Assembly: GCF_058153355.1 (NCBI RefSeq)
Contig: NZ_CM177019.1
Length of the DNA: 64,000 nt
Reading direction: 5' to 3' (one strand)
The translations under genes were made by a program, and so were the position numbers. Below, piece by piece: positions 3,086-49,015 of the stretch. Each line of letters starts with the position of its first letter. Positions within the stretch are counted from its first letter, which is position 1. The notes below the pieces were generated by a model. That model was not told where the DNA came from. It saw nothing but the letters and a program-made list of their open reading frames with translations, and did no database searches.

Positions 3086-3090
3086 TAAAA

Positions 3091-3124: not shown

Positions 3125-3126
3125 CG

Positions 3127-4669: not shown

Positions 4670-4768
4670 GAATTAATTGTTGAGTCCTGATTTTAATTAT
4701 ACTCCATCTGTTATTGAGCCAATAATAATTAATAATCCCCGATGGGAAGGCCATCGGGAATTATGCCA

Positions 4769-7330
4769 TTACAGCAAACTCTTCAAGCGATAAATCCACT
4801 CCAGCGCCTGACGCGGAGTCAGTGAATCCGGGTCGAGATTTTCCAGTGCTTCGACCGCTGGCGAGGTTTCTTCCGGTACTGACAGCAAAGACATTTGCGT
4901 ACCATCCACTTGCGTAGCGGCGGCGTTCGGCGAAATGCTTTCCAGTTCACGCAGTTTTTGCCGTGCGCGCTTAATAACCTCTTTTGGCACGCCCGCCAGA
5001 GCAGCAACCGCCAGGCCGTAACTTTTGCTCGCCGCGCCATCCTGCACGCTATGCATAAAGGCAATGGTATCACCGTGCTCCAGCGCATCAAGATGCACGT
5101 TGGCGACGCCTTCCATTTTCTCCGGCAGTTGAGTCAGTTCAAAGTAGTGGGTAGCAAACAACGTCAACGCTTTAATCTTATTCGCCAGATTTTCAGCGCA
5201 CGCCCATGCCAGCGACAGACCATCGTAAGTGGACGTTCCGCGCCCAATCTCATCCATCAACACCAGGCTGTACTCCGTGGCGTTATGCAGAATATTAGCG
5301 GTTTCGGTCATCTCCACCATAAAGGTTGAACGCCCGGATGCCAGATCGTCAGCCGCGCCCACACGGGTAAAGATACGGTCAATCGGGCCAATCTCGACTT
5401 TTTGCGCCGGTACGTAGCTGCCGATATAGGCCATCAGCGCAATCAGTGCGGTCTGGCGCATATAGGTACTTTTACCGCCCATGTTCGGACCGGTGATGAT
5501 CAACATGCGACGCTGCGGCGACAGGTTCAGCGGGTTAGCGATAAACGGCTCATTCAGTACCTGTTCAACCACCGGATGGCGACCTTCGGTAATGCGAATG
5601 CCCGGTTTATCAATGAAGGTCGGGCAGGTGTAGTTCAGGGTATAGGCCCGTTCCGCCAGGTTTACCAGTACGTCGAGTTCTGCCAGTGCGCTCGCGCTCT
5701 GTTGCAACGCTTCCAGATGCGGCAACAACAGGTCGAACAACTCTTCATAAAGCTGTTTTTCCAGTGCCAGCGCTTTACCTTTCGAGGTGAGTACTTTGTC
5801 TTCATACTCTTTTAGCTCTGGAATAATGTAGCGTTCGGCGTTTTTCAGCGTCTGGCGACGCATATAGTTGATGGGTGCCAGATGGCTTTGTCCACGGCTA
5901 ATCTGAATGTAATAACCATGCACCGCGTTAAAGCCGACTTTCAGCGTGTCCAGGCCGGTACGTTCACGCTCGCGAACTTCCAGACGCTCCAGATAATCTG
6001 TCGCGCCGTCAGCCAGCGCTCGCCACTCATCCAGCTCTTCGTTATAGCCTGATGCGATAACACCACCGTCGCGTACCAGCACCGGCGGTGTGTCGATGAT
6101 TGCTCGCTCCAGCAGATCGCGCAGCTCTGCAAACTCGCCCATTTTCTCACGCAGCGCCTGTACCGGTGCACTAGCGACATTTTCTAACTGCGCACGCAGC
6201 TCCGGCAGTTGCTGGAAAGCGTGACGCATACGGGCCAGATCGCGTGGGCGGGCAGTCCGTAAAGCCAGACGTGCCAGAATACGTTCCAGGTCGCCGACCT
6301 GACGCAGTACCGGCTGCAGCTCAGCGGTGAAATCCTGCAATGCGCCAATAGTTTGCTGGCGCTCAAGCAACACGCGGGTATCGCGCACTGGCATATGCAG
6401 CCAGCGTTTCAGCATTCGACTCCCCATCGGCGTTACAGTGCAGTCGAGCACGGAAGCCAGCGTGTTTTCCGCACCGCCCGCCAGGTTCTGGGTAATTTCC
6501 AGGTTACGACGCGTCGCGGCATCCATAATGATGCTGTCCTGCTCACGTTCCATAGTGATAGAACGAATATGCGGCAGAGTCGTACGTTGAGTATCTTTCG
6601 CATACTGCAACAGACAACCGGCGGCACAAAGTCCGCGCGGCGCGTTCTCGACGCCAAAACCGACCAGATCGCGAGTGCCAAATTGTAGATTCAACTGCTG
6701 GCGCGCGGTGTCGATTTCAAACTCCCACAGCGGGCGACGGCGCAAGCCGCGACGACCTTCAATCAGCGACATTTCAGCAAAATCTTCTGCATACAGCAGT
6801 TCCGCCGGATTAGTGCGTTGCAGTTCTGCCGCCATCGTTTCGCGGTCAGCCGGTTCGCTCAGGCGAAAACGACCAGAACTGATATCCAGCGTCGCATAGC
6901 CGAATCCTTTGCTGTCCTGCCAGATAGCAGCCAGCAGGTTGTCCTGACGTTCCTGCAACAGCGCTTCATCGCTGATGGTGCCCGGCGTAACGATACGCAC
7001 AACTTTGCGCTCGACCGGCCCTTTGCTGGTCGCCGGATCGCCAATCTGTTCACAAATAGCAACGGACTCGCCCTGATTCACCAGTTTGGCGAGATAGTTT
7101 TCCACCGCATGGTAGGGAATCCCCGCCATCGGGATCGGCTCTCCCGCCGAAGCGCCGCGTTTGGTCAGTGAAATATCCAGCAGTTGTGACGCACGTTTTG
7201 CGTCGTCATAAAACAGTTCGTAAAAGTCACCCATCCGGTAGAACAGCAGGATCTCGGGATGCTGGGCTTTCAGCTTGAGATACTGCTGCATCATTGGCGT
7301 ATGGGCGTCAAAATTTTCTATTGCACTCAT
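4769..7330 (-). CDS. mutS: DNA mismatch repair protein MutS
   Basis: 853-aa [24 protein letters not shown]..., Walker [10 protein letters not shown]; full length. Confidence 0.97.
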
Positions 7331-7576
7331 GGGGTTATGTCCGGTTCCCTGATATTAAATGGGGTGTGATGGTTTTTATTTTCGTTGTAATCACATAAGG
7401 CGCACATGATACCGGAGTTAATCATTTCAGGGGAAGAAGCGAACGGCGAGTTCTTGATGGTGATTCCGGGAAAGATGCTGTTTTGCAGCTTTTGCGTGAT
7501 GCTTATGAAGCAAGTACGCAAAATTGTATCAGTTGGCGACCCCTTCTTCTTCAGAGCCATAGTCCCCTTTCAAATT

Positions 7577-7599
7577 AAGTTGTAATATAAATACATCTT
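7577..7599 (+). promoter_or_regulatory. Candidate NsrR operator upstream of ygbA
   Basis: aagttgtaatataaatacatctt resembles the NsrR inverted-repeat consensus (AAnATGCATTT...AAATACATCTT), 18 bp upstream of the ygbA start. Confidence 0.45.
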
Positions 7600-7616
7600 A
7601 ATGAGGTGGAGGCAGC

Positions 7617-7970
7617 ATGTCCGGCAAGCGTATCTCTCGTGAAAAACTGACGATTAAAAAAATGATCGATCTTTATCAAGCGAAATGCCCGCAGGCGTCA
7701 GCGGAGCCGGCGCATTACGAGGCATTGTTTGCTTATGCGCAAAAACGGCTGGATAAATGTGTGTTCGGCGAAGACAAACCCGCCTGTAAGCAGTGTCCGG
7801 TGCACTGTTACCAGTCTGCAAAGCGTGAAGAGATGAAACAGATTATGCGTTGGGCCGGGCCGCGCATGCTGTGGCGTCATCCGATCCTAACCGTACGCCA
7901 TCTCATTGATGACAAGCGTCCGGTGCCGGAGTTGCCAGAAAAATATCGCCCGAAAAAACCTCGTGAATAG
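7617..7970 (+). CDS. ygbA: Nitric-oxide-induced protein YgbA
   Basis: 117-aa ORF MSGKRISREKLTIKKMIDLYQAKCP... in conserved position between mutS and fhlA. Confidence 0.9.
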   Translation: MSGKRISREKLTIKKMIDLYQAKCPQASAEPAHYEALFAYAQKRLDKCVFGEDKPACKQCPVHCYQSAKREEMKQIMRWAGPRMLWRHPILTVRHLIDDKRPVPELPEKYRPKKPRE

Positions 7971-8008
7971 TATACCGGACAGGCAGATCTGTCCGGTACC
8001 TCATGCAG

Positions 8009-10087
8009 TTAAACCAATGCCGATTTATCAATCCCCAGTCGTTTCATCCGTGATAGCAGTGTGGTGCGTTTTAGTCCCAGACGTTGCGCCGCGCCTTTCG
8101 GCCCGGCAACCACGCCGTTAGTCTCTTTTAATACACGCACAATTAGCTGATATTCATCTTCGCCCTCCTGAGCGACGACCGTTGCAGTCGGCGGCGTTTT
8201 AGGTTCCGGTAAAGCAATATCAGGCAATGACAGCTGCAGCACGTTGCCACGTGTCAGCAATACCGCGCGCTCAATGACGTTTTCCAGCTCGCGTACGTTA
8301 CCTGGCCACTCCATATTGCTCAACGCGCGCAACGTTTCGGCAGGAATGCTGTCGATATTACGCCCCAGACGGCGGGCAATTTTAAAAGTAAAGGATTTTG
8401 CCAGCAGCGGAATATCTTCCGGACGCTCGCGTAGTGGCGGCAGGTGGATCGGGAATACGTTCAGGCGGTAATAGAGATCGCTACGGAACTCGCGGTCGGC
8501 AACCATTTTTTTCAGATCGCGGTTAGTCGCGGCAATTAAACGCACGTCCGTCTGTATAATTTTATTACTGCCGAGACGTTCAAACTCCTGTTCCTGTAAT
8601 ACACGCAGCAACTTCGGTTGTAACTCCAGCGGCATATCACCCACTTCATCGAGGAACAGGGAGCTTTTATCCGCCAGTTCAAAACGACCGATACGCTGGG
8701 CGCTGGCTCCGGTAAACGCACCACGCTCATGGCCAAACAGATCGCTTTCCAACAATCCGGCAGGCATCGCCGCGCAGTTCATTTTTACCATGCGGCGATT
8801 ATTACGCCCACTGAGATTATGGATCGCGCGGGCAATCAGCTCTTTACCAGTGCCAGTTTCACCGAGGATCAGAACTGTACTGTCACTTTGTGCCACCATT
8901 TCAACTTGTTTAAGCACGCTGTACATGGCTTCACTGCGACCAATAATCTCGCCAAATTCACTATCAACATTGTTGAGCTGCTCGGTCAGGGCGAGATTTT
9001 CATCAACCAGTCGTTCTTTCAGACGATGAATTTCCTGATAGGCAAGGGCGTTATCGACAGCGATTGCCACACGTTCAGCAATCTGGCGCAGTAAATTCAG
9101 ATTGGTCGTGGTAAACACTTTCTCTTCGCATTGCGCCAGTTTCAGCACGCCCAGCATGGTGTCGCCAGACATCAGCGGTAATAGGCACAAGGTTTGAATC
9201 TGGTTGCCCCAGGTGTCGAACAACATGCGTTCGTAAGGGGCTAAATTATCTCGCTCGTGGAGATTAATCAGCAGCATCTCTTTGCTTTTAAACACGCGTT
9301 CGGTGAGGGTTCCTGCTTCATCGACTTCGCTCTGTTCGTGAGCGGGATGCTGTTTATCAAGATAGTGAGTGGAGTAGATGTTGAGTTTGTTTTTACGGTG
9401 GCTGCGTAAGACGATGCTGATATCGTCAATGTCGAAATAGTAATGGATTTCTTTGGCGACTTCGCTGACCAGTTCGTCCATATCCAGGCGAGAAAGCACC
9501 GCGTTGGTGATGGCAACCAGGATGCGGAAGTTATCGCGTTCCCGGCATAACAACTCATAGTCGACATTATTGACGACGCGGCTCTGGATTTGTTCGGTGA
9601 CGACAGAAATGATCTGCGTAAAAGTTTGCAGGCGATTGAACTCTTTTTCACTCCACGGGCGATCGTCATAACGAATAAATTCACAGCCACCAAAAATATG
9701 CCCTTCCGCCGCCAGTGGCATCAGGCAATAGTGACCAAATTTGGGGTATAGCCCACCAGCGGCCAGCTGCGGCCAGGTTTCACAAAATTCTTCGTAACTG
9801 CAATGCAGTGTATCAGGGCGCGACAAAATGCTGCGCACCGGACCGTGTGCCAGAACAGTTTCGTCTTCATAATTTATGGGGGTGTCTTTTTCACGCGACG
9901 CGTAATAAGACGCACGTTGAGTCTGCGCTTGCCACAACACAATAGCTGCATTGTCGGCGAGCGCAGAACGCTTTACCAATTGCGAAAGAGCCTCACACAG
10001 CGAGGCCAGATCGGGCTGCTGCAATAGTGTCCGAGTGATGTCGAACAACCCTTGTTGTCCGAGATCACTCATCGGTGTATATGACAT
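8009..10087 (-). CDS. fhlA: Formate hydrogenlyase transcriptional activator (sigma54-dependent)
   Basis: 692 aa from MSYTPMSDLGQ...; GAF N-terminus, AAA+ sigma54-interaction domain ([14 protein letters not shown]), C-terminal HTH; 12-codon upstream extension rejected. Confidence 0.95.
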   Translation of the reverse strand: MSYTPMSDLGQQGLFDITRTLLQQPDLASLCEALSQLVKRSALADNAAIVLWQAQTQRASYYASREKDTPINYEDETVLAHGPVRSILSRPDTLHCSYEEFCETWPQLAAGGLYPKFGHYCLMPLAAEGHIFGGCEFIRYDDRPWSEKEFNRLQTFTQIISVVTEQIQSRVVNNVDYELLCRERDNFRILVAITNAVLSRLDMDELVSEVAKEIHYYFDIDDISIVLRSHRKNKLNIYSTHYLDKQHPAHEQSEVDEAGTLTERVFKSKEMLLINLHERDNLAPYERMLFDTWGNQIQTLCLLPLMSGDTMLGVLKLAQCEEKVFTTTNLNLLRQIAERVAIAVDNALAYQEIHRLKERLVDENLALTEQLNNVDSEFGEIIGRSEAMYSVLKQVEMVAQSDSTVLILGETGTGKELIARAIHNLSGRNNRRMVKMNCAAMPAGLLESDLFGHERGAFTGASAQRIGRFELADKSSLFLDEVGDMPLELQPKLLRVLQEQEFERLGSNKIIQTDVRLIAATNRDLKKMVADREFRSDLYYRLNVFPIHLPPLRERPEDIPLLAKSFTFKIARRLGRNIDSIPAETLRALSNMEWPGNVRELENVIERAVLLTRGNVLQLSLPDIALPEPKTPPTATVVAQEGEDEYQLIVRVLKETNGVVAGPKGAAQRLGLKRTTLLSRMKRLGIDKSALV

Positions 10088-10160
10088 TTTGTTCTTCCAG
10101 GAAAGCACCGCAAAGCGGTGCAAAAGGTCATTGACTAACTATAGGAGATTTAGAATTTTA

Positions 10161-11171
10161 TTAGCATATACGCGGAAGCGGTTCGGCGTGTGGTAAATCG
10201 AGGGTTCGTTTCACGCCATACAGACCGGCAAGACGAACACCTTTACGTTCCACCACTTCACCAATCAGCGCCGCGTCTTTCCCCAGTGGATGGGAATGTA
10301 ACGCCGCCAGCACTTGCTCTGCTGCGTTGCGTTCAACGGCGATCACCAGTTTGCCTTCGTTGGCAAAGTTAAGGGCGTCCAGCCCCAGCAGTTCGCAAAC
10401 GCCGCGCACGGCAGGTTTAACCGGCAGTGCCGCTTCTGAAATTTCAATACCACAACCGCAGGCTGCCGCGAACTCATGAACTACCGCGTTCACTCCACCA
10501 CGGGTGGCGTCACGCAGTGCCTTCACACCGGGAATATCACGCAGCGTCTGGATGAGCGGCGTCAGCACTGCGCAGTCGCTGACCAGTTCGCCATCCAGCC
10601 CCAGTTGCTCGCGCAGATTAAGAATAGTTGCTCCGTGGTCGCCGAGAGTTCCACTCACCAGCAGAACATCGCCTGCGGTTAGCGTCTGTGCGCCCCAGTG
10701 AATATTCGCCGGGATCGCGCCCATGCCAGCGGTGTTGATAAACAGTTTATCTGCCGCGCCGCGTTGCACCACTTTAGTGTCGCCTGTAACGATGGCAATG
10801 CCTGCCGCGCGGGCGGTTTCTGCCATGCTGGTCACCACGGCTTTTAGCGTCTCCATCGGCAATCCCTCTTCGAGGATAAAGCCACAAGAGAGATAGCGCG
10901 GAATAGCGCCACTGACCGCAACGTCATTCGCGGTGCCACAAATCGCCAGCTTGCCAATATTGCCACCAGGAAAGAACAGCGGGTCGATGACGTAGCTGTC
11001 GGTGGAGAACGCCAGACGGTCGCCTTCTGCCACCAGCTGCGCCAGCTCAAGGCGCGCCTGGTCTTCCTGTTCTGCCAGCCACGGATTGGCAAAAGCTTCC
11101 ATAAACAGGCTGTTGATTAATTGCTGCATCGCCTGGCCGCCGCTGCCGTGGGCGAGTTGGATATTATTCAC
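10161..11171 (-). CDS. hypE: Hydrogenase maturation protein HypE
   Basis: 336-aa ORF, last gene of the hyp cluster. Confidence 0.93.
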   Translation of the reverse strand: MNNIQLAHGSGGQAMQQLINSLFMEAFANPWLAEQEDQARLELAQLVAEGDRLAFSTDSYVIDPLFFPGGNIGKLAICGTANDVAVSGAIPRYLSCGFILEEGLPMETLKAVVTSMAETARAAGIAIVTGDTKVVQRGAADKLFINTAGMGAIPANIHWGAQTLTAGDVLLVSGTLGDHGATILNLREQLGLDGELVSDCAVLTPLIQTLRDIPGVKALRDATRGGVNAVVHEFAAACGCGIEISEAALPVKPAVRGVCELLGLDALNFANEGKLVIAVERNAAEQVLAALHSHPLGKDAALIGEVVERKGVRLAGLYGVKRTLDLPHAEPLPRIC

Positions 11172-12289
11172 GCTTCACTCTCCTGCTGACGATACTGATA
11201 CCACGCGGCGCATGCTCCCTCGGAGGAAACCATCAGCGCGCCAAACGCGGTTTGAGGATTACAGGTGTTACCAAACAGCGGGCATTGATGCGGCTTACAT
11301 TTGCCCGTCAATACTTCGCCACAACGTGCGCGCGGGTCATCGCAAACCTGCTGCGGTGCCGGGCGGAAATGCGCTTCGGCGTCAAATCGTTGATAGTCTG
11401 GCGTCAGGTGTACACCAGAAGATTCAATCACGCCTAAGCCGCGCCATTCGCTGTCGCCGTTGACACAGAACACATCCGCAATCGCCTGTTGCGCCAGCAG
11501 GTTACCGGCATCTGGCACCACCCGCCGATACTGATTTTCTACCTTGCTGTGGGCCGCTATTTTCTGCTCCACCAGCATGACCACGCCTTGTAGTAGATCA
11601 AGCGGTTCGAATCCAGCAACCACCAGAGGACGATGAAAATCACTGGCGATAAAATTATAGGCGTCGGTGCCGATAACCATACTGACGTGGCCCGGCGCGA
11701 GGAACGCATCGATACCGTTATCCGGCTGTTCCAGCAAACTGCGTAGCGTTGGGATCAGCGTAATATGCTGGCAGAAAAAGTAAAAATTTTGCACATCGCG
11801 GGCTTTCGCCTGTTGCAGAGTGATGGCCGTCGTCGGCATGGTGGTTTCAAACCCTAAGCCGAAGAACACCACTTTACGAGTTGGATTCTCCTGCGCCAGT
11901 TTCAACGCATCCATTGGCGAGTAAACGATGCGAACATCGGCACCGCGCGCTTTTGCCTGTAACAGCGACCCTTGTTTCCCTGGTACGCGCATGGCGTCGC
12001 CAAAGGTACAGAAGATGACTTCCGGATGGCTGGCAATCTCCACGCAAGTGTCGATTCTTCCCATCGGCAGTACACATACCGGGCAACCCGGACCGTGGAT
12101 AAACTCGACGTTTTCCGGCAGCAACTGGTCGAGGCCGAATTTAAAAATGGCGTGGGTATGACCGCCGCACACTTCCATAATCCGCAGAGGGCGTTCGGCG
12201 GTGTAAGAGAGATGTGAAGCACGTTCGCGTAGATGCTCAATTAACTGCATCACCTGTTCCGGCGCGCGATATTCATCAACAAAACGCAT
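11168..12289 (-). CDS. hypD: Hydrogenase maturation protein HypD
   Basis: 373-aa ORF, overlaps hypE start by 4 nt. Confidence 0.95.
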   Translation of the reverse strand: MRFVDEYRAPEQVMQLIEHLRERASHLSYTAERPLRIMEVCGGHTHAIFKFGLDQLLPENVEFIHGPGCPVCVLPMGRIDTCVEIASHPEVIFCTFGDAMRVPGKQGSLLQAKARGADVRIVYSPMDALKLAQENPTRKVVFFGLGFETTMPTTAITLQQAKARDVQNFYFFCQHITLIPTLRSLLEQPDNGIDAFLAPGHVSMVIGTDAYNFIASDFHRPLVVAGFEPLDLLQGVVMLVEQKIAAHSKVENQYRRVVPDAGNLLAQQAIADVFCVNGDSEWRGLGVIESSGVHLTPDYQRFDAEAHFRPAPQQVCDDPRARCGEVLTGKCKPHQCPLFGNTCNPQTAFGALMVSSEGACAAWYQYRQQESEA

Positions 12290-12561
12290 TATTTTTCCTC
12301 GCCATACAACAGCGCGCCGACATCCGGCTCAACGTCAAACATGTTTTGTAAGGCGTCGAGGGTGTCGCGCGCTTCGGCTTCATTAATTACGCTCATGGCA
12401 AAGCCAACGTGAACCAGTACCCACTGGCCCACGCGTGGCTGACCGTTTTCATCGCAGCTGCCGACTAACGTTAGGTCGACGTCGCGCTGAATACCGCAGA
12501 CGTCGACTTTCGCCTGGTTGCCGTCAATGGTGCGGATCTGGCCGGGAACGCCTATGCACAT
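12289..12561 (-). CDS. hypC: Hydrogenase maturation chaperone HypC
   Basis: 90 aa from conserved MCIGVPGQI start; upstream extension rejected. Confidence 0.93.
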
Positions 12562-13424
12562 CGCTGTGTCTCCAGCCAGTTCAGCCACTGGTCCATCCCT
12601 TCGCCGCTGGTGGCGGAAATAAGGATGATTTCAATTTCTGGATTGACTTCGCGGGCGCAGGCGATGCACTTCTCAACGTCGAAATTGAGATACGGTAGCA
12701 GGTCAACTTTGTTGAGCAGCATCAGTGAGGCGGCGGCAAACATATGTGGATATTTCAGCGGTTTGTCTTCACCTTCGGTAACGGAAAGCACCGCCACTTT
12801 GTGTTTTTCACCGAGATCGAAGCTCGCCGGACATACGAGGTTGCCAACGTTTTCGATAAACAGAATACCGTTATCGTCCAGTGGCAGGCGCGGCGCGGCG
12901 TCGGCGATCATCTGTGCGTCAAGATGGCAACCTTTACCGGTATTCACCTGAATCGCTGGCGTGCCGGTAGCGCGAATGCGCGCGGCATCGTTCACGGTTT
13001 GCTGGTCGCCTTCAATCACCGCACACGGAACGCTATCTTTCAGGCGCATTAAGGTTTCAGTCAGCAGCGTGGTTTTACCGGAACCAGGGCTGGAAACCAG
13101 GTTGAGTACCAACTGATTGCGGGCAGCAAAGCGCGCTCGGTTGCGTTCAGCCAGACGGTTGTTTTTGTCCAGCACGTCAATTTCGACTTCCAGCATCCGA
13201 CGCTGGCTCATGCCCGGCGCGTGAGTGCCCGCTTCGCCATGACCGTAATGCAGGTCGCCTTCTTCAGTCTGGCTGGGGGTAAATTCAGGCGCTTTAATGC
13301 CGGTGATTTTCATCTTCGGGCGTGCCGCCGGGGCAAATGGCGCGCTACGAAACGCGGAATGAGGGTTATGTTCATCACCCTCGATATACAGGTTGCCTTC
13401 ACCGCAACCGCATGTTGTACACAT
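12552..13424 (-). CDS. hypB: Hydrogenase nickel-incorporation GTPase HypB
   Basis: 290 aa, [11 protein letters not shown]-terminal metal-binding motif, GSGKTT P-loop. Confidence 0.95.
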
Positions 13425-13427
13425 CGC

Positions 13428-13778
13428 TCACTCCTGGTCTATTTCTATCCGCCGAATCTGTAAACCGTCGTCTGCCACAATTTGTAGCATGTCGCCATGA
13501 CACTGTGGACAGCGTCGGACGCGCTGGGTTAATAGCGTCACATATTGTTGGCATGTTTCGCACCAGCATTCGGCCTCTTGTTCTTCGAGGTGCAGTTTAC
13601 AACCTTCCGCTACGCTGCCGCGGCAAACCAGATCAAAACAAAAGGCAAGAGAGCTGGTTTCGACACAAGAAAATGCGCCAATTTTGAGCCAGACCCCAGT
13701 TACGCGTTTTGCACCGTGTTTTGCGGCCTGCTGTTCGATCAATTCCAGTGCCCGTTGGCAGAGGGTTATTTCGTGCAT
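13428..13778 (-). CDS. hypA: Hydrogenase nickel-incorporation protein HypA
   Basis: 116 aa from MHEITLCQ..., CxxC...CxxC zinc site. Confidence 0.93.
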   Translation of the reverse strand: MHEITLCQRALELIEQQAAKHGAKRVTGVWLKIGAFSCVETSSLAFCFDLVCRGSVAEGCKLHLEEQEAECWCETCQQYVTLLTQRVRRCPQCHGDMLQIVADDGLQIRRIEIDQE

Positions 13779-13806
13779 ATCGCCTCCCATTAACTATTGC
13801 CAGCTA

Positions 13807-13824
13807 CAAGCAATAATTGTGCCA
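13807..13824 (-). promoter_or_regulatory. sigma54 (-24/-12) promoter for the hyp operon
   Basis: Minus-strand reading TGGCACaattaTTGCTTG, close match to TGGCAC-N5-TTGC. Confidence 0.6.
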
Positions 13825-13850
13825 GTGTTGATTATCCCTAAAGTGAATAA

Positions 13851-13890
13851 TGTCGATGATGTCGAAATGACACGTCGACACGGCGACGAA
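13851..13890. promoter_or_regulatory. Candidate FhlA upstream activating sequence in the hyp-hyc divergent region
   Basis: Repeated TGTCGA-type half-sites tgtcgatgatgtcgaaatgacacgtcgacacgg between two sigma54 promoters. Confidence 0.4.
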
Positions 13891-13937
13891 ATTCACCAGA
13901 ATCCTAAAAATCTCTTTTATAACAATAAATTAAAAGT

Positions 13938-13954
13938 TGGCACAAAAAATGCTT
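13938..13954 (+). promoter_or_regulatory. sigma54 (-24/-12) promoter for the hyc operon
   Basis: TGGCACaaaaaaTGCTT with GG and GC spaced as in the sigma54 consensus, ~35 bp upstream of hycA. Confidence 0.55.
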
Positions 13955-13989
13955 AAAGCTGGCATCTCTGTTAAACGGGTAACCTGACA

Positions 13990-14451
13990 ATGACTATTTG
14001 GGAAATAAGCGAGAAAGCCGATTACATCGCACAGCGGCATCGTCGCCTACAGGACCAGTGGCATCTCTACTGCAATTCGCTGGTTCAGGGGATCACGTTA
14101 TCGAAAGCGCGCCTGCATCACGCCATGAGCTGTGCGCCAGACAAAGAACTCTGTTTCGTCCTTTTTGAACATTTTCGCATTTACGTCACCCTGGCGGATG
14201 GCTTTAACAGCCACACCATCGAGTATTACGTCGAAACGAAAGAGGGTGAAGAAAAACAGCGGATTGCGCAGGCACAATTGAGCATTGACGGAATGATAGA
14301 TGGCAAGGTCAACATCCGCGATCGCGAACAGGTACTGGAACACTATCTCGAAAAAATCGCTGGCGTTTACGACAGCTTATACACCGCCATTGAAAACAAT
14401 GTACCGGTGAATTTAAGCCAACTGGTAAAGGGACAAAGCCCGGCGGCATGA
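13990..14451 (+). CDS. hycA: Formate hydrogenlyase regulatory protein HycA
   Basis: 153-aa ORF in conserved position. Confidence 0.93.
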   Translation: MTIWEISEKADYIAQRHRRLQDQWHLYCNSLVQGITLSKARLHHAMSCAPDKELCFVLFEHFRIYVTLADGFNSHTIEYYVETKEGEEKQRIAQAQLSIDGMIDGKVNIRDREQVLEHYLEKIAGVYDSLYTAIENNVPVNLSQLVKGQSPAA

Positions 14452-14575
14452 GCTGAGGCTTTGCCCGTTTTGCAGGCGTTACGCCTGTTTGGGGATGGGC
14501 GTGTCGATGAGTGTCGAAAATGACATTTCATCGGCATGTTTTCGTCAAAAATGACAATCACCTGAGGAATGCCTG

Positions 14576-15098
14576 GTGAATCGTTTTGTAATTGCTGACT
14601 CCACGCTCTGTATCGGCTGCCACACCTGTGAGGCCGCCTGTTCAGAGACGCATCGCCAGCACGGCCTGCAATCAATGCCGCGCCTGCGAGTGATGCTAAA
14701 TGAAAAAGAATCTGCGCCGCAGCTCTGTCACCACTGTGAAGATGCACCCTGTGCGGTGGTCTGCCCGGTTAACGCTATCACCCGCGTTGATGGGGCAGTG
14801 CAGCTGAATGAAAGCCTGTGCGTAAGCTGCAAACTGTGCGGCACCGCCTGCTCCGGCGCGTGTCAGCACGTTGCTTGACTGGGTGCCGGGTATACGCGCG
14901 ATCGCCGTCAAATGTGACCTCTGTAGCTTTGATGAACAAGGTCCAGCCTGCGTGCGGATGTGCCCAACCAAAGCCCTGCATCTGGTGGATAACACCGATA
15001 TCGCCCGCGTCAGCAAGCGTAAGCGTGAGCTGACCTTTAACACGGACTTTGGCGATCTCACCTTGTTTCAGCAGGCTCAAAGTGGAGAGGCTAAATGA
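14576..15098 (+). pseudogene. hycB: hycB (formate hydrogenlyase 4Fe-4S ferredoxin subunit) disrupted by a frame-shifting internal deletion
   Basis: GTG-start ORF 14576..14878 (100 aa) carries three CxxCxxCxxxC motifs and stops at TGA; the rest, with the fourth motif CDLCSFDEQGPACVRMCP, continues in another frame to 15098. The paralog hydN in this window is one uninterrupted ORF. Confidence 0.7.
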
Positions 15099-16921
15099 GC
15101 GCAATTTCCCTGATCAATAGCGGCGTGGCGTGGTTTGTTGCTGCCGCTGTTCTGGCATTTCTCTTTTCTTTTCAAAAGGCGTTAAGCGGCTGGATTGCCG
15201 GAATTGGCGGCGCGGTGGGTAGCCTGTATACGGCAGCCGCAGGCTTCACTGTGCTGACTGGCGCGGTTGGCGTGAGCGGCGCGTTGTCGCTGGTAAGCTA
15301 CAATGTGCAAATCTCTCCGCTTAATGCGATTTGGCTGATAACCCTCGGCCTGTGCGGTCTGTTTGTCAGCCTTTACAACATTGACTGGCATCGCCATGCG
15401 CAGGTGAAATGCAACGGTTTGCAAATCAATATGTTGATGGCTGCTGCCGTCTGTGCCGTCATTGCCAGCAATCTGGGCATGTTCGTAGTAATGGCAGAAA
15501 TCATGGCCCTGTGTGCGGTGTTCCTCACCAGCAACAGCAAAGAGGGCAAACTGTGGTTTGCGCTGGGGCGTCTTGGCACTTTGCTGCTGGCGATTGCTTG
15601 CTGGCTGCTGTGGCAACGTTACGGCACGCTGGATCTGCGCCTGCTGGATATGCGCATGCAACAGCTGCCGCTTGGTTCCGATATCTGGCTGCTCGGTGTG
15701 ATTGGTTTTGGCCTGCTGGCCGGGATTATCCCGCTGCACGGCTGGGTGCCACAGGCTCATGCTAACGCCTCTGCGCCAGCTGCCGCGCTGTTTTCCACGG
15801 TGGTGATGAAAATTGGCCTGCTGGGTATTTTAACCCTGTCTCTGCTGGGCGGTAATGCGCCGCTGTGGTGGGGAATTGCACTTCTGGTACTCGGCATGAT
15901 CACCGCGTTCGTCGGCGGTCTGTATGCGCTGATGGAGCACAACATTCAGCGTCTGCTGGCTTACCACACTCTGGAAAATATCGGCATCATCCTGCTGGGG
16001 CTGGGCGCTGGCGTAACGGGTATCGCGCTTGAACAACCGGCGCTGATTGCCCTTGGTCTGGTCGGTGGTCTGTACCATCTGCTTAACCATAGCCTGTTCA
16101 AGAGCGTACTGTTCCTCGGGGCTGGGAGCGTCTGGTTCCGTACCGGTCATCGCGATATTGAAAAACTCGGCGGTATTGGCAAAAAAATGCCGGTTATCTC
16201 CATCGCCATGTTGGTCGGTCTGATGGCAATGGCTGCGCTGCCACCGCTGAACGGTTTTGCCGGGGAATGGGTTATCTATCAATCCTTCTTCAAACTGAGC
16301 AATAGTGGCGCGTTTGTTGCTCGTCTTCTCGGGCCGCTGCTCGCCGTGGGGCTGGCAATTACCGGTGCGCTGGCAGTGATGTGTATGGCGAAAGTTTATG
16401 GCGTTACTTTCCTTGGCGCGCCGCGTACCAAAGAAGCCGAAAACGCCACCTGTGCGCCGCTCCTGATGAGCGTAAGCGTAGTGGCACTGGCGATTTGCTG
16501 CGTGATTGGCGGTGTTGCTGCGCCGTGGCTGCTGCCGATGTTGTCTGCTGCCGTACCTCTGCCGCTGGAGCCTGCTAATACAACCGTTTCTCAACCAATG
16601 ATCACGTTGCTGCTGATTGCCTGCCCACTTCTGCCATTCATCATTATGGCGATTTGCAAAGGCGACCGTCTGCCGTCGCGTTCCCGCGGCGCTGCCTGGG
16701 TATGTGGCTACGACCATGAAAAATCAATGGTGATTACCGCTCACGGTTTTGCCATGCCGGTGAAACAGGCATTTGCGCCAGTGCTGAAACTGCGCAAATG
16801 GCTGAATCCGGTGTCGCTGGTACCAGGCTGGCAGTGCGAGGGGAGTGCGTTGCTGTTTCGCCGGATGGCGCTGGTTGAACTGGCGGTGCTGGTGGTGATT
16901 ATTGTTTCACGAGGAGCCTGA
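15095..16921 (+). CDS. hycC: Formate hydrogenlyase membrane subunit 3
   Basis: 608-aa polytopic membrane protein. Confidence 0.95.
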   Translation: MSAISLINSGVAWFVAAAVLAFLFSFQKALSGWIAGIGGAVGSLYTAAAGFTVLTGAVGVSGALSLVSYNVQISPLNAIWLITLGLCGLFVSLYNIDWHRHAQVKCNGLQINMLMAAAVCAVIASNLGMFVVMAEIMALCAVFLTSNSKEGKLWFALGRLGTLLLAIACWLLWQRYGTLDLRLLDMRMQQLPLGSDIWLLGVIGFGLLAGIIPLHGWVPQAHANASAPAAALFSTVVMKIGLLGILTLSLLGGNAPLWWGIALLVLGMITAFVGGLYALMEHNIQRLLAYHTLENIGIILLGLGAGVTGIALEQPALIALGLVGGLYHLLNHSLFKSVLFLGAGSVWFRTGHRDIEKLGGIGKKMPVISIAMLVGLMAMAALPPLNGFAGEWVIYQSFFKLSNSGAFVARLLGPLLAVGLAITGALAVMCMAKVYGVTFLGAPRTKEAENATCAPLLMSVSVVALAICCVIGGVAAPWLLPMLSAAVPLPLEPANTTVSQPMITLLLIACPLLPFIIMAICKGDRLPSRSRGAAWVCGYDHEKSMVITAHGFAMPVKQAFAPVLKLRKWLNPVSLVPGWQCEGSALLFRRMALVELAVLVVIIVSRGA

Positions 16922-16923
16922 GA

Positions 16924-17847
16924 ATGAGTGTTTTATATCCGTTAATTCAGGCGCTGGTGTTATTTGCCGTTGCGCCGCTGCTCTCCGGTATTACCCGCGT
17001 GGCGCGCGCCCGCTTGCATAACCGTCGCGGGCCGGGCGTGTTGCAGGAGTATCGCGACATTATCAAACTGCTGGGTCGTCAGAGCGTTGGTCCCGATGCC
17101 TCCGGCTGGGTGTTCCGCCTGACACCGTACGTAATGGTTGGCGTCATGTTGACTATCGCTACCGCGCTGCCGGTAGTGACTGTCGGTTCTCCGCTGCCGC
17201 AACTGGGGGATTTGATCACTTTACTGTATCTCTTCGCCATTGCGCGTTTCTTCTTTGCCATTTCTGGTCTGGATACCGGTAGTCCGTTTACTGCTATTGG
17301 CGCGAGCCGTGAAGCGATGCTGGGCGTGCTGGTTGAACCGATGCTGCTGCTTGGTCTGTGGGTCGCCGCGCAGGTGGCCGGTTCCACCAACATCAGCAAC
17401 ATCACCGACACCGTTTATCACTGGCCGCTGAGCCAGAGCATTCCGCTGGTGCTGGCGCTCTGTGCCTGCGCATTCGCCACCTTTATCGAAATGGGCAAAC
17501 TGCCGTTCGACCTGGCGGAAGCCGAGCAGGAGCTGCAGGAAGGTCCGCTCTCTGAGTACAGCGGCAGCGGCTTTGGCGTCATGAAATGGGGTATCAGCCT
17601 GAAACAGCTGGTGGTGTTACAGATGTTCGTCGGGGTGTTTATTCCGTGGGGACAAATGGAAACCTTCACTGCCGGTGGGCTGCTGCTGGCGCTGGTGATT
17701 GCCATCGTCAAACTGGTGGTCGGCGTACTGGTTATCGCGCTGTTCGAAAACAGCATGGCCCGTCTGCGTCTTGATATTACACCACGCATTACCTGGGCTG
17801 GTTTTGGCTTTGCATTTTTAGCGTTCGTCTCCTTGCTGGCGGCGTGA
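16924..17847 (+). CDS. hycD: Formate hydrogenlyase membrane subunit 4
   Basis: 307-aa membrane protein. Confidence 0.95.
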   Translation: MSVLYPLIQALVLFAVAPLLSGITRVARARLHNRRGPGVLQEYRDIIKLLGRQSVGPDASGWVFRLTPYVMVGVMLTIATALPVVTVGSPLPQLGDLITLLYLFAIARFFFAISGLDTGSPFTAIGASREAMLGVLVEPMLLLGLWVAAQVAGSTNISNITDTVYHWPLSQSIPLVLALCACAFATFIEMGKLPFDLAEAEQELQEGPLSEYSGSGFGVMKWGISLKQLVVLQMFVGVFIPWGQMETFTAGGLLLALVIAIVKLVVGVLVIALFENSMARLRLDITPRITWAGFGFAFLAFVSLLAA

Positions 17848-17864
17848 TTAAAGAGAGTTTGAGC

Positions 17865-19574
17865 ATGTCTGAAGAAAAATTAGGTCAACATTATCTCGCC
17901 GCGCTGAATGAGGCATTTCCGGGCGTCGTGCTGGACCACGCCTGGCAGACCAAAGATCAGCTGACTGTCACCGTGAAGGTGAACTATCTGCCGGAAGTGG
18001 TGGAGTTCCTCTACTACAAGCAGGGGGGCTGGCTGTCGGTGCTGTTTGGTAACGACGAACGCAAACTGAATGGTCATTACGCCGTTTATTACGTGCTGTC
18101 GATGGAGAAGGGCACCAAGTGTTGGATTACGGTTCGCGTCGAAGTTGACGCCAACAAACCAGAATATCCGTCCGTGACGCCGCGCGTTCCGGCGGCGGTG
18201 TGGGGCGAGCGTGAAGTGCGCGATATGTACGGTTTGATTCCGGTAGGGCTTCCGGATGAACGCCGTCTGGTGCTGCCGGATGACTGGCCGGATGAACTCT
18301 ACCCTCTGCGTAAAGACAGCATGGATTATCGTCAACGTCCGGCACCAACTACTGATGCTGAAACCTACGAGTTCATCAACGAACTGGGCGATAAGAAAAA
18401 CAATGTCGTGCCGATTGGTCCGCTGCACGTCACTTCTGACGAACCGGGCCACTTCCGTCTGTTCGTTGATGGCGAAAACATTATCGACGCCGACTACTGC
18501 CTGTTCTATGTCCATCGCGGCATGGAAAAACTGGCGGAAACCCGCATGGGTTACAACGAAGTGACCTTCCTCTCTGACCGAGTTTGTGGGATCTGCGGCT
18601 TTGCCCACAGCACCGCTTACACCACATCGGTGGAAAACGCGATGGGTATTCAGGTGCCAGAACGTGCGCAGATGATCCGCGCCATTTTGCTGGAAGTGGA
18701 ACGCCTGCACTCGCATCTGCTCAACCTTGGCCTTGCCTGCCACTTTACTGGCTTTGACTCCGGTTTTATGCAGTTCTTCCGCGTGCGTGAAACCTCCATG
18801 AAAATGGCGGAGATCCTTACCGGTGCGCGTAAAACCTACGGCCTGAACCTGATCGGCGGGATTCGTCGCGATCTGCTGAAAGACGACATGATCCAGACCC
18901 GTCAACTGGCGCAACAAATGCGTCGTGAAGTACAGGAGCTGGTGGATGTGCTGCTGAGTACGCCAAACATGGAACAGCGCACTGTCGGCATTGGTCGTCT
19001 GGACCCGGAAATTGCCCGCGACTTCAGTAACGTCGGCCCGATGGTCCGCGCCAGTGGTCACGCCCGCGATACCCGCGCCGATCACCCGTTTGTTGGCTAT
19101 GGCTTACTGCCAATGGAAGTTCACAGTGAGCAGGGCTGCGATGTGATTTCCCGTCTGAAAGTGCGTATCAACGAAGTCTATACCGCGCTGAACATGATTG
19201 ACTACGGTCTGGATAACCTGCCGGGCGGCCCGCTGATGGTGGAAGGCTTTACCTACATTCCGCACCGTTTTGCGCTGGGCTTTGCCGAAGCGCCGCGTGG
19301 CGATGATATCCACTGGAGTATGACCGGCGACAACCAGAAGCTGTACCGCTGGCGCTGCCGTGCCGCGACCTACGCGAACTGGCCGACCCTGCGCTACATG
19401 CTGCGCGGCAACACCGTTTCTGATGCGCCGCTGATTATTGGTAGCCTGGACCCTTGCTACTCCTGTACCGACCGCATGACCGTGGTCGATGTGCGTAAGA
19501 AGAAGAGCAAAGTGGTGCCGTACAAAGAACTTGAGCGCTACAGCATTGAGCGTAAAAACTCGCCGCTGAAATAA
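17865..19574 (+). CDS. hycE: Hydrogenase 3 large (NiFe) subunit
   Basis: 569 aa from MSEEKLGQHYL...; RVCGICGFAHS N-terminal and DPCYSCTDR C-terminal NiFe ligand motifs. Confidence 0.96.
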   Translation: MSEEKLGQHYLAALNEAFPGVVLDHAWQTKDQLTVTVKVNYLPEVVEFLYYKQGGWLSVLFGNDERKLNGHYAVYYVLSMEKGTKCWITVRVEVDANKPEYPSVTPRVPAAVWGEREVRDMYGLIPVGLPDERRLVLPDDWPDELYPLRKDSMDYRQRPAPTTDAETYEFINELGDKKNNVVPIGPLHVTSDEPGHFRLFVDGENIIDADYCLFYVHRGMEKLAETRMGYNEVTFLSDRVCGICGFAHSTAYTTSVENAMGIQVPERAQMIRAILLEVERLHSHLLNLGLACHFTGFDSGFMQFFRVRETSMKMAEILTGARKTYGLNLIGGIRRDLLKDDMIQTRQLAQQMRREVQELVDVLLSTPNMEQRTVGIGRLDPEIARDFSNVGPMVRASGHARDTRADHPFVGYGLLPMEVHSEQGCDVISRLKVRINEVYTALNMIDYGLDNLPGGPLMVEGFTYIPHRFALGFAEAPRGDDIHWSMTGDNQKLYRWRCRAATYANWPTLRYMLRGNTVSDAPLIIGSLDPCYSCTDRMTVVDVRKKKSKVVPYKELERYSIERKNSPLK

Positions 19575-19583
19575 GGAATCGCC

Positions 19584-20126
19584 ATGTTTACCTTTATCAA
19601 AAAAGTCATCAAAACCGGCACGGCGACCTCGTCTTACCTGCTGGAGCCGATTGCGGTTGATAAAAACTTCCGTGGTAAGCCAGAGCAGAACCCGCAGCAG
19701 TGCATCGGCTGTGCAGCCTGCGTCAATGCCTGCCCGTCAAACGCCTTAACGGTTGAAACTGACCTCGCCACCGGTGAGCTGGCGTGGGAGTTCAATCTTG
19801 GACGCTGCATCTTCTGTGGACGCTGCGAAGAAGTCTGCCCGACGGCGGCGATCAAACTGTCGCAAGAGTACGAACTGGCGGTGTGGAAGAAAGAAGATTT
19901 CCTGCAACAGTCTCGCTTCGCGCTGTGCAACTGCCGCATCTGTAATCGTCCTTTCGCCGTCCAGAAAGAGATCGACTACGCCATTGCGCTGCTTAAGCAC
20001 AATGGTGACAGCCGTGCGGAAAACCACCGCGAAAGCTTTGAGACTTGCCCGGAATGTAAGCGCCAGAAATGCCTGGTGCCGTCCGACCGTATTGAACTGA
20101 CTCGCCATATGAAAGAGGCCATCTGA
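19584..20126 (+). CDS. hycF: Formate hydrogenlyase iron-sulfur subunit 6
   Basis: 180 aa, two CxxCxxCxxxCP motifs. Confidence 0.95.
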
Positions 20127-20893
20127 TGAGCAATTTATTAGGCCCCCGTGACGCCAACGGCATTCCGGTCCCGATGACGGTGGATGAATCCATCGCCAGT
20201 ATGAAGGCGTCGTTACTGAAAAAAATCAAACGTTCTGCCTACGTTTACCGCGTGGACTGCGGCGGCTGCAACGGCTGCGAAATTGAAATTTTCGCAACCT
20301 TATCGCCGCTGTTCGATGCAGAACGCTTCGGCATTAAAGTCGTTCCGTCTCCGCGTCATGCGGATATTTTACTGTTTACCGGCGCGGTCACCCGTGCAAT
20401 GCGATCCCCTGCGCTGCGTGCGTGGCAGTCCGCGCCGGACCCGAAAATCTGTATCTCCTACGGTGCCTGCGGTAACAGCGGCGGGATCTTCCACGATCTC
20501 TACTGCGTGTGGGGGGGGACGGATAAAATCGTCCCGGTGGATGTCTACATTCCGGGGTGCCCGCCAACGCCAGCCGCCACGCTGTACGGCTTTGCAATGG
20601 CGCTCGGCCTGCTGGAGCAGAAAATTCACGCCCGTGGGCCGGGTGAACTGGATGAACAACCGGCAGAGATCCTGCATGGCGATATGGTGCAGCCGCTGCG
20701 TGTAAAAGTAGATCGCGAAGCACGCCGCCTGGCGGGTTATCGTTACGGTCGCCAGATTGCCGATGATTTCCTGACGCAGTTAGGGCAGGGTGAAGAGCAG
20801 GTTGCACGCTGGCTGGAAGCGGAAAACGATCCGCGTCTGAACGAGATTGTCAGCCATCTGAATCATGTTGTTGAAGAGGCGCGTATTCGATGA
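20126..20893 (+). CDS. hycG: Hydrogenase 3 small subunit
   Basis: 255-aa ORF. Confidence 0.95.
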
Positions 20894-21300
20894 GTGAAAA
20901 GGTGGTGTTCAGTCAACTGAGCCGTAAATTTATTGATGAGAACGATGCTACGCCCGCCGAGGCGCAGCAGGTGGTCTATTACAGCCTGGCGATTGGTCAC
21001 CACCTTGGGGTTATCGATTGCCTGGAAGCCGCGCTCACCTGCCCGTGGGATGAATATCTGGCATGGATTGCCACTCTGGAGGCGGGCAGCGAAGCCCGCC
21101 GCAAAATGGAAGGCGTGCCAAAATATGGTGAGATCGTTATCGACATTAACCATGTGCCGATGCTGGCCAACGCATTCGATAAAGCCCGGGCAGCGCAAAC
21201 TTCGCAGCAGAAGGAATGGAGTACCATGCTGTTAAGTATGCTGCATGATATTTATCAGGAAAATGCCATCTATTTGATGGTGAGGAGACTGCGTGACTGA
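20890..21300 (+). CDS. hycH: Formate hydrogenlyase maturation protein HycH
   Basis: 136-aa ORF. Confidence 0.93.
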
Positions 21301-21763
21301 CGTTTTACTCTGTGTTGGCAATAGCATGATGGGCGATGATGGCGCAGGTCCGCTGCTGGCGGAAAAGTGCGCCGCCGCGCCGAAAGGTAACTGGGTGGTG
21401 ATTGACGGCGGAAGCGCACCGGAAAATGACATTGTCGCCATCCGCGAACTGCGCCCGACGCGACTGCTGATTGTCGACGCTACGGATATGGGGCTAAACC
21501 CCGGCGAGATCCGCATCATCGACCCGGATGACATCGCTGAGATGTTTATGATGACTACCCATAACATGCCGCTGAACTACCTTATCGACCAGTTAAAAGA
21601 AGACATTGGCGAAGTGATTTTCCTCGGCATCCAGCCGGATATCGTCGGTTTTTACTACCCGATGACCCAGCCGATTAAAGATGCGGTAGAAACCGTTTAT
21701 CAACGACTTGAAGGCTGGGAAGGGAATGGTGGATTTGCGCAGTTAGCGGTGGAAGAAGAGTAG
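21293..21763 (+). CDS. hycI: Hydrogenase 3 maturation endopeptidase
   Basis: 156-aa [25 protein letters not shown]... Confidence 0.95.
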   Translation: MTDVLLCVGNSMMGDDGAGPLLAEKCAAAPKGNWVVIDGGSAPENDIVAIRELRPTRLLIVDATDMGLNPGEIRIIDPDDIAEMFMMTTHNMPLNYLIDQLKEDIGEVIFLGIQPDIVGFYYPMTQPIKDAVETVYQRLEGWEGNGGFAQLAVEEE

Positions 21764-21787
21764 TTTTTCAGTAAGGAATTCAGGGAA

Positions 21788-22156
21788 TTGAAAATCAGAA
21801 CAGGGATGTGCGCTTTTTTATTTTGCTTAGTGCTTCCTACGCAGGCTACCAGCTTTACCGAATATCTGCCAATGAGTGACAGCGAATACGCGCAAAAGCG
21901 GGCGCTGAAACCTCTCCTGACTATGCCTTATTATACCGAGCAAACCTGGCATTTTAGAAAAGTGGGCGTTGCTGGCGTGACGCTTGAGAAGATGCCAAAT
22001 GAAGAGGATTACTGGCAATTAACTGCTAAAGACCGCGCCGGTAAATCCTGGAAGGTGCCTGTGGGTATGCTGGCAAATATGGCGGGCAAAGGGCAACTCT
22101 ATCGCGCCGATCTGGATCGTAACGGCATTCAGGATCTGGTTACCAAGTGCTGGTAA
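21788..22156 (+). CDS. Hypothetical secreted protein (N-terminal part of a possibly split gene), accessory
   Basis: 122-aa ORF with signal-peptide-like N-terminus MCAFLFCLVLPTQA and a DLDRNGIQDL motif; no K-12 counterpart at this locus. Confidence 0.45.
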   Translation: MKIRTGMCAFLFCLVLPTQATSFTEYLPMSDSEYAQKRALKPLLTMPYYTEQTWHFRKVGVAGVTLEKMPNEEDYWQLTAKDRAGKSWKVPVGMLANMAGKGQLYRADLDRNGIQDLVTKCW

Positions 22157-22187
22157 TGGTCTGGCTCCTTATGCACATTTAATCCTT

Positions 22188-22553
22188 ATGACGTTCACGC
22201 GCGATGGTCGTCCCTGTGTCTTTGAACCCTGGGGATTCTACACCGCAAGCAAAACTGGCGTAGATGATTTGCTGGATTTGCAAGGCAATGGCCACACACA
22301 ATTGCTGGATATGCAGTTTAATTCTGGTTACTGGATAACCAGTCTGTATCAGGTAAAAGACGCCAAATGGCAACGTGTTCACGGCTGGTTTGGCAAGTTA
22401 AGCTATCCCGCGCTCACGCGTTTTACTTATACCCCCAACCGTAAACTCGTCCTCAAACCCATTGCCGGGCGTGACCCGCAAACGGAAGATTTAGCGCTGA
22501 CGCAGCGTTGTTTGATAACAGGGGATGTGCTTGATGGGGTGAATCAGAACTGA
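22188..22553 (+). CDS. Hypothetical protein (possible C-terminal part of the same split gene), accessory
   Basis: 121-aa ORF in a different frame 31 bp after the previous stop; contains a DLLDLQGNGHTQLLD motif. Confidence 0.4.
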   Translation: MTFTRDGRPCVFEPWGFYTASKTGVDDLLDLQGNGHTQLLDMQFNSGYWITSLYQVKDAKWQRVHGWFGKLSYPALTRFTYTPNRKLVLKPIAGRDPQTEDLALTQRCLITGDVLDGVNQN

Positions 22554-22715
22554 CTTTTTGCAGAGTGGGTATGAGGATTTTGGGGGAGAATTATATCGCG
22601 CGCAAGTGTTTACATATTGTGAACTTGGATTTGGTGAGCTATAGTTTCTGAACACATAAGGATAGAACTCGCAGATGTGGCTGTTTACTTACTATAAGGA
22701 AGTTAAAACTTAAAA

Positions 22716-23027
22716 ATGCACATCATTTCGAAAGCGCCATTTGAAGAGTCTGCGCGCAAATATCCTAACGACGCTCTGGCTCTACACTCATTGTATCGGG
22801 TTATTAAGGAAACGGATTTTTCTACGCCAGAAGAAATGCGAACGGCGTTTCCCAACCTCGACAATTTTAAATATCGCAACAAATGGTACGTTCTGGATGT
22901 CGGCGGGAACAATCTTAGGGTTATTGCCTACATAAACTTTGTTAATAAGCGGTTCTTTGTGAAGCACATAACGAATCATGCCGAGTATGACAAACTGACA
23001 CGTTACTACAGAGAGAACAAAGAATGA
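22716..23027 (+). CDS. HigB-like toxin (RelE/ParE superfamily mRNA interferase)
   Basis: 103-aa ORF; similar in length and conserved segments (FPNLDNFKY, VGGNNLRV, H..YD) to E. coli HigB; toxin gene precedes antitoxin with a 4-nt ATGA overlap. Confidence 0.75.
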   Translation: MHIISKAPFEESARKYPNDALALHSLYRVIKETDFSTPEEMRTAFPNLDNFKYRNKWYVLDVGGNNLRVIAYINFVNKRFFVKHITNHAEYDKLTRYYRENKE

Positions 23028-23443
23028 CTGCTAATGCTGCACGCGCTGTTAAAGCAACAAGAGAACTGGTCAATGCAGTCCCCTTTCTGGGAGGCAGTGA
23101 CTCAGAAGATGATTATCGTGAAGCACTGGAACTGGTCGAATATTTGATTGAAGAAGATGACACCAATCCACTTATCGACTTTCTGGCGAGCCGCATTGCA
23201 GAGTATGAAAACAACCACGAAAAGTTTGCAGAGTTCGACAAAGCCGTTGCTGCAATGCCGGTTGGCGTGGCGTTACTTCGCACGTTGATTGATCAACATA
23301 ATCTGACCTATGCGGATTTGAAGAACGAAATCGGCTCTAAATCCCTGGTCAGTCAGATTTTGTCTGGACAAAGATCCCTGACGATATCCCACATTAAGGC
23401 ACTTTCAGCCCGATTTGGCGTTAAGCCGGAATGGTTTCTTTGA
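23024..23443 (+). CDS. HigA-like antitoxin (XRE-family HTH)
   Basis: 139-aa ORF; C-terminal segment IGSKSLVSQILSGQRSLTISHIKALSARFGV matches the HigA HTH region. Confidence 0.75.
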   Translation: MTANAARAVKATRELVNAVPFLGGSDSEDDYREALELVEYLIEEDDTNPLIDFLASRIAEYENNHEKFAEFDKAVAAMPVGVALLRTLIDQHNLTYADLKNEIGSKSLVSQILSGQRSLTISHIKALSARFGVKPEWFL

Positions 23444-23488
23444 TTTTGACTGATGCCAAACGCCAGATTGCCCGATGCGCAACGCTTA

Positions 23489-24718
<1,230 letters not shown>

Positions 24719-24748
24719 CATGCCTGCAATCTGGGAAACCGGGGTAGA

Positions 24749-24779
<31 letters not shown>

Positions 24780-49012: not shown

Positions 49013-49015
49013 TTT

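Follow-up and report, generated by a model that had tools for sequence, protein, structure and literature searches.

The window analyzed here, a 64,000-nt stretch of E. coli DNA (contig NZ_CM177019.1), carries a hycB allele that is very probably a real, recent and strain-private null allele. The gene has lost 89 nt at a short direct repeat, and an uninterrupted hycB ORF of ~203 codons (612 nt) is absent from the locus, where the remaining 523 nt are split over two reading frames.

hycB is divided between two frames

We aligned window segment 14560-15110 to the intact hycB gene of E. coli EC42405 (NZ_CP043414.1:1207613-1208224; 612 nt, 203 aa), which served as the reference for the deletion. 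Positions 14576-15098 differ from this gene by a single clean 89-nt gap and two substitutions, at 14605 and 14894. The 5′ part of the gene (14576-14838, plus strand) comprises gene nt 1-263 in the native frame from a GTG start, corresponding to codons 1-87 plus the first two bases of codon 88. The 3′ part (14841-15098, plus strand) comprises codons 119-203 and the stop, shifted to the +1 frame with respect to the 5′ part; these last 85 codons lie at 14841-15095. Translation from the native GTG yields a truncated plus-strand ORF at 14576-14878 that encodes 100 aa and closes with an out-of-frame tail ending in CGTACSGACQHVA before a premature TGA (14876-14878). The second frame is open from 14826, directly after a TAA at 14823-14825, to the TGA at 15096-15098, and its earliest possible start is a TTG at 14871 that would give 75 aa; inspection of the sequence revealed no Shine-Dalgarno sequence before this TTG.

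Both fragments are recognizably HycB. Residues 1-92 of the truncated ORF differ from the solved E. coli HycB chain (PDB 7z0s_B) by one substitution, I90T, and codons 119-203 in the second frame are 100% identical to EC42405 HycB WP_001079186.1 (tblastn, query residues 119-203 at window 14841-15095), such that two ORFs in different frames jointly match HycB at 99-100%. The locus has hycA (13990-14451) on one side and hycC (15095-16921) on the other, and the hycC ATG overlaps the native hycB stop in an ATGA at 15095-15098, the same arrangement as in annotated genomes. NCBIfam holds no dedicated HycB model, and the hycB fragments match only paralog models in that collection (AegA, YgfT and HydN), with scores below the cut-offs of those models; the HycB assignment therefore rests on identity to 7z0s_B together with synteny, and sequence identity and position in the hyc operon agree. 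The four Cys motifs (16 Cys) expected of HycB do not occur in one chain, with motif 4 confined to the +1 frame. The locus does not encode four Cys motifs in a single chain from one ORF of 203 codons, and 14576-15098, which is hycB as judged from sequence and synteny, should therefore be annotated as a hycB pseudogene.

An earlier sequence-only reading of the same DNA had already assigned the region to hycB, described a first ORF of 100 aa (14576-14878) ending at a TGA with motif 4 and the C-terminus in another frame open from 14826 to 15098, and estimated ~174 codons against 203, a loss of 89 nt that is not a multiple of three. The ORF list, the sequence, the 7z0s_B match over residues 1-92, the position between hycA and hycC and the single 89-nt gap bear out each of these points. 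That reading had also called for an alignment to reference hycB, and the alignment to EC42405 contains the gap and no intact single ORF. Its count of three ferredoxin Cys motifs in the first ORF holds with a refinement, in that all four Cys of motifs 1-3 are kept, C92 being restored by the one repeat copy that remains (see below).

The deletion lies at a 13-nt imperfect direct repeat

To place the breakpoint, the missing 89 nt can be assigned to gene nt 264-352 or 269-357, depending on gap placement. Six gap placements are equivalent, each at the minimum of 2 mismatches, and therefore define a 5-nt perfect microhomology, CGGCA (14839-14843), within which the crossover falls. The breakpoint context reads GTG, then CGGCA, then CCGCCTGCTCC, and the junction sequence is CTGTGCGGCACCGCCTGCTCC. 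In intact EC42405 hycB the two copies of a 13-nt direct repeat identical at 12 of 13 positions have a spacing of exactly 89 nt: the upstream copy CGGCAtCGCCTGC at codons 88-92 encodes C-G-I-A-C, and the downstream copy CGGCAcCGCCTGC at codons 118-122 encodes P-A-P-P-A. The window retains a sole copy, CGGCACCGCCTGC (14839-14851, plus strand), at the deletion junction, and this copy carries the downstream C variant. The intact allele thus has a repeat copy on each flank of the deletion and the deleted allele has one left at the junction, in agreement with the sequence-only reading, which had located the breakpoint in gcaccgcctgctcc and drawn attention to short repeats there; what that site contains is the 5-nt microhomology within the 12/13 repeat, and the outcome is an out-of-frame 89-nt deletion that splits the frames.

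Loss of one short direct repeat together with the intervening DNA is a textbook signature of slippage or microhomology-mediated joining, and short-direct-repeat deletions formed by replication slippage or microhomology-mediated events were classically described for E. coli lacI. We infer that a nascent strand slipped between the 13-nt imperfect repeat copies in hycB during replication or repair; such slippage would have taken out 89 nt, including one repeat copy. The layout is the same as that of other spontaneous deletions between short direct repeats, here with 5 nt of perfect microhomology inside a 12/13 repeat, and in comparison with these the event has nothing unusual and no predicted stabilizing hairpin. 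A hairpin between the repeats that would bring the copies together was considered and dropped because the predicted DNA fold of the intervening segment is no better than that of shuffles (z = -0.59). The lesion is a new allele, and the kind of lesion is well known and of low general interest.

A second assembly contains the same junction

An exact look-up of the 100-aa ORF returned one contig, SRR31441161_40 (contig_40, 36,976 nt), which Logan assembled from SRA run SRR31441161. All 18,938 nt retrieved from this contig match window 4576-23513 with 100% identity, and the contig stops at 23513, the edge of an IS621 copy and an expected break point for short-read assembly. Since the junction in the Logan contig is identical, a second assembly pipeline applied to raw reads reproduces the deletion. 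The run likely comes from the same isolate as the window, in which case it is independent as an assembly only and not as a biological replicate. Across ~40 kb aligned to EC42405, the only other length differences are the loss of 8 nt from a tandem repeat and some 1-nt changes, few in number, that are intergenic or mutually compensating, and ~60 other window genes are full length relative to EC42405 without frameshift scatter.

The IS621 copy at the contig edge is a complete 1279-nt element of the IS110 family at 23497-24775, located between higA (23024-23443) and ascB, with its transposase ORF at 23689-24669 on the plus strand. It is 99.6% identical to copies annotated as 'IS110-like element IS621 family transposase' and is not present at the equivalent site in EC42405.

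The allele is private to one strain or sample

We next compared the locus with other genomes. Of 5,426 complete E. coli genomes, 5,425 contain hycB, which is a single piece of 612 nt in every listed row of a sample spread across the whole ranking of these genomes. When a 101-nt junction probe was used as the query, the listed best matches were all in two pieces spanning 190 nt rather than 101, and with a window-derived query they were all in two pieces spanning 1190 nt rather than 1101; among the listed best rows from the 5,425 complete E. coli genomes there was no one-piece match to the junction, and no record among the 5,425 matched the junction probe at the identity of at least 99% expected of a one-piece match. 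Exact junction patterns likewise had 0 matches in 100,044 GTDB species-representative genomes and 0 matches in JGI metagenome contigs. With the junction found nowhere else in these collections, the allele is taken to be private to this strain or sample, and the same absence from GTDB representatives, JGI contigs and listed best E. coli rows led us to reject both a recurrent hot spot and a lineage marker.

Elsewhere in the window, segment 24800-49700 has a best identity of ~98.4% over 25 kb to any of the 5,426 complete E. coli genomes, and the hyc region is at least 99% identical in only 18 records. Identity of at most ~98.4% to complete genomes places the strain in a sparsely sampled E. coli lineage.

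These results bear on two ways in which the allele could be less than it seems. In one, hycB is intact in the genome and the 89 nt were lost in assembly or polishing across the short repeat, a caveat of sequencing or assembly error that the sequence-only reading had itself raised. The deletion is indeed bounded by a repeat, exactly one contig in the assembly collection has the truncated ORF, and the support comes from assembled sequence. However, a different pipeline arrived at the same junction from raw reads, in an assembly that agrees with the window at 100% over 18.9 kb, the ~60 other genes are free of frameshift scatter and of the small-indel scatter that such errors would leave, and 89-nt losses are atypical as a mode of read error. 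The repeat is also only 13 nt long with one mismatch, and assemblers normally use k-mers longer than this. The deletion is thus, as far as the assembled sequence allows, probably not an assembly artefact, and we consider an intact genomic hycB very unlikely. A real deletion acquired during isolation or laboratory passage, or present in a sub-population only, is less improbable though still unlikely, and it is compatible with the main explanation. The allele has been seen in one sample only, and the lack of secondary operon decay fits a very young mutation. Against a minor sub-population, the assembly is continuous through the junction, so the deleted allele was at least dominant in the sequenced culture; sequence alone does not separate a host-acquired from a culture-acquired event. 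Were the deletion culture-acquired, it would tell little about the natural lineage. We therefore retain a real, recent deletion in this strain as the favored account of the locus.

The remaining formate hydrogenlyase genes in the window are intact

We examined the state of the other formate hydrogenlyase (FHL) genes in the window. Segment 13779-14576, which contains the hypA-hycA divergent control region, hycA and the hycA-hycB spacer, is base-for-base identical to EC42405, and hycA (13990-14451, plus strand) is intact. Downstream, hycC (15095-16921, plus strand) is intact at 608 aa and 100% identical, and keeps its own Shine-Dalgarno sequence, GGAGAGG (15084-15090), with its start now 217 nt past the premature hycB stop. 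The genes hycD, hycE, hycF, hycG, hycH and hycI (16924 to ~21763, plus strand) are all full length and 99.4-100% identical to EC42405, as are fhlA, hypE, hypD, hypC, hypB and hypA on the minus strand (~8009-13778; 99.7-100% identical). The hypF gene (29826 to ~32078, plus strand) is full length at 750 aa and 98.4% identical to EC42405, and the paralog hydN (29146-29670, plus strand), which the sequence-only reading had correctly called intact, encodes 175 aa and is 100% identical to EC42405. With the other hyc and hyp genes, fhlA, hydN, hypF and the control region all intact, the lesion looks recent and is accompanied by no further decay. A decaying genome of the Shigella type was rejected, as ~60 neighboring genes are intact and the one IS621 is the only insertion sequence in the window. 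Neither fdhF nor the hyf (FHL-2) operon is located in the window, and FHL could already have been dead by another cause, or an alternative route to H2 could exist.

Several further differences from EC42405 occur in the window. A second repeat-mediated deletion at ~22134 (gene 21806-22550) has removed one of two tandem ATCTGGTT copies and frameshifts a 251-aa accessory hypothetical gene just 3′ of hycI; listed full-length E. coli matches to this gene span 778-779 nt against 771 here, and this deletion is also in the Logan contig. A ~6-kb block, ygbI-ltnD-otnK-otnC-ygbM-ygbN, is missing at window 3083-3130, where pphB (3130-3783) follows immediately on the gene for subunit D of hydroxyarylic acid decarboxylase (2849-3082); this region beside mutS is known to be strain-variable. 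An AAA-ATPase and RNA-ligase pair that lies between luxS and emrB in EC42405 is missing here (53049-53109), and the tRNA array 3′ of csrA (48920-49544) has Ser and three Arg genes compared with Ser and four Arg in EC42405, a copy-number difference in a tandem array. Relative to EC42405, norW (minus strand) has lost 1 nt and gained 1 nt at sites 3 nt apart (32442-32445); the two changes compensate each other, and the gene is full length (377 aa, 96.8% identical to EC42405).

The truncated product is predicted to lack at least two clusters

Intact HycB has 16 Cys in four motifs, C12/15/18/22, C51/54/59/63, C82/85/88/92 and C143/146/155/159. As 89 cannot be divided evenly by three, reading from the native GTG goes out of frame at codon 90 and terminates at the TGA at 14876-14878. 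The 100-aa product has its Cys92 supplied by the retained repeat copy, and lacks Pro93 and the FGAIEF strand (the conserved Pro-Phe-Gly-Ala-Ile after Cys92), a portion of the stretch that links Cys motifs 3 and 4, and motif 4 as a whole. In four-cluster ferredoxins of this type, motif 4 gives three ligands to one cluster and the fourth ligand to another. With motif 4 lost and its ligands shared by two clusters, no more than two of the four [4Fe-4S] clusters could be complete, and from this general four-cluster ferredoxin wiring we predict that at least two HycB clusters cannot form. HycB holds clusters B1-B4 of an eight-cluster relay that runs from the FdhF molybdopterin site to the HycE [NiFe] site, and a HycB loop between the B3 and B2 cluster-ligating motifs docks on HycF and HycE (PMC9474812). 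The docking loop and the deleted segment both lie between Cys motifs and may correspond, a match that is conjectural. Loss of clusters in the truncated product would cut the electron relay from FdhF to HycF.

Experiments in E. coli K-12 indicate what such a loss would do. Deletion of hycB abolishes FHL-dependent H2 production, leaves ~10% of FDH-H dye activity and lowers total hydrogenase activity by >90%, and HydN and HycB cannot stand in for each other (PMC6004506). From these K-12 phenotypes, and with HydN unable to take the place of HycB, the strain is predicted to be anaerogenic, with no FHL-1-dependent H2/CO2 from formate, in line with the impaired hydrogen evolution that the sequence-only reading had suggested, and by the same reasoning would have strongly reduced FDH-H dye activity and formate accumulating in fermentation. 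Expression of hycC-I may also fall through polarity, because ribosomes no longer translate the 217 nt that precede hycC.

Some function could in principle persist if ribosomes made a +1 slip in the 14826-14878 overlap, or if separately translated pieces, the second from re-initiation at TTG 14871, assembled with each other; we regard a still functional hycB of either kind as most improbable. The two frames share a 52-nt overlap, the premature stop has the weak UGA-C context, and a ribosome slipping by +1 there, with GCU UGA C (14873-14879) as the candidate site, would resume at the native ...DWVPGIRA. The product would be a ~173-aa HycB retaining all 16 Cys, and the repeat happens to re-create Cys92. 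Yet a prfB-type site combines a slippery CUU-UGA-C, an upstream Shine-Dalgarno-like element and conservation among homologs, whereas here the site is GCU-UGA-C, without a prfB-like slippery CUU-U and without a Shine-Dalgarno sequence 3 nt upstream. The split arrangement is unique to one strain, being absent from the best rows listed for 5,425 E. coli genomes, and is therefore no conserved recoding site. Re-initiation fares no better, with no Shine-Dalgarno sequence before TTG 14871 or GTG 14883, and a slip product would still lack ~30 residues, among them the conserved C-P-F-G-A-I strand and some of the sequence that joins motifs 3 and 4. It is just as doubtful that the truncated gene is other than simply dead, whether by way of a low-level +1 slip product or of a stable 100-aa, 12-Cys fragment acting as a free two-cluster ferredoxin. 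If it were, the slip product would be an internally deleted HycB with all 16 ligating Cys and some electron transfer, or the N-terminal fragment would divert FdhF electrons to partners other than hydrogenase 3. A null allele of hycB remains the preferred interpretation.

Relation to known losses of formate hydrogenlyase

Deletion mutants of hycB in E. coli K-12 were reportedly described by Sauter et al. in 1992. The allele in the window resembles such K-12 mutants (JW2694, PMC6004506) in the loss of HycB with the rest of the hyc operon present. The K-12 mutants are engineered, whereas the allele here is spontaneous and out of frame, leaves a 100-aa N-terminal fragment and, unlike the K-12 mutants, places 217 nt of untranslated mRNA before hycC. 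HydN is a four-cluster ferredoxin-like paralog that is 39% identical to HycB and interacts with FdhF, but unlike HycB it lies outside the purified FHL complex and provides no functional replacement of HycB (PMC6004506); the intact hydN of the window therefore does not rescue the defect.

The closest natural precedent that we found is in Shigella flexneri, in which fdhF is a pseudogene (PMC6156198). This is likewise an FHL-component pseudogene in the E. coli/Shigella complex, with predicted retention of formate instead of its conversion to H2 and CO2. The two cases differ in scale and context, as the Shigella flexneri loss affects fdhF and is lineage-wide in a decaying genome, whereas the loss here affects hycB in one strain with intact neighbors. 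A literature search pairing the anaerogenic trait with formate hydrogenlyase turned up no paper.

The hycB allele leaves knowledge of formate hydrogenlyase and of deletion formation unchanged. It is a natural hycB null with the remaining operon intact and otherwise an ordinary pseudogene, and its only practical use would be to explain a likely anaerogenic phenotype or to serve as a clonal marker. Its meaning for the organism is that it proposes, in one strain, a specific genetic cause for a classical diagnostic trait, the absence of gas from glucose in anaerogenic E. coli.
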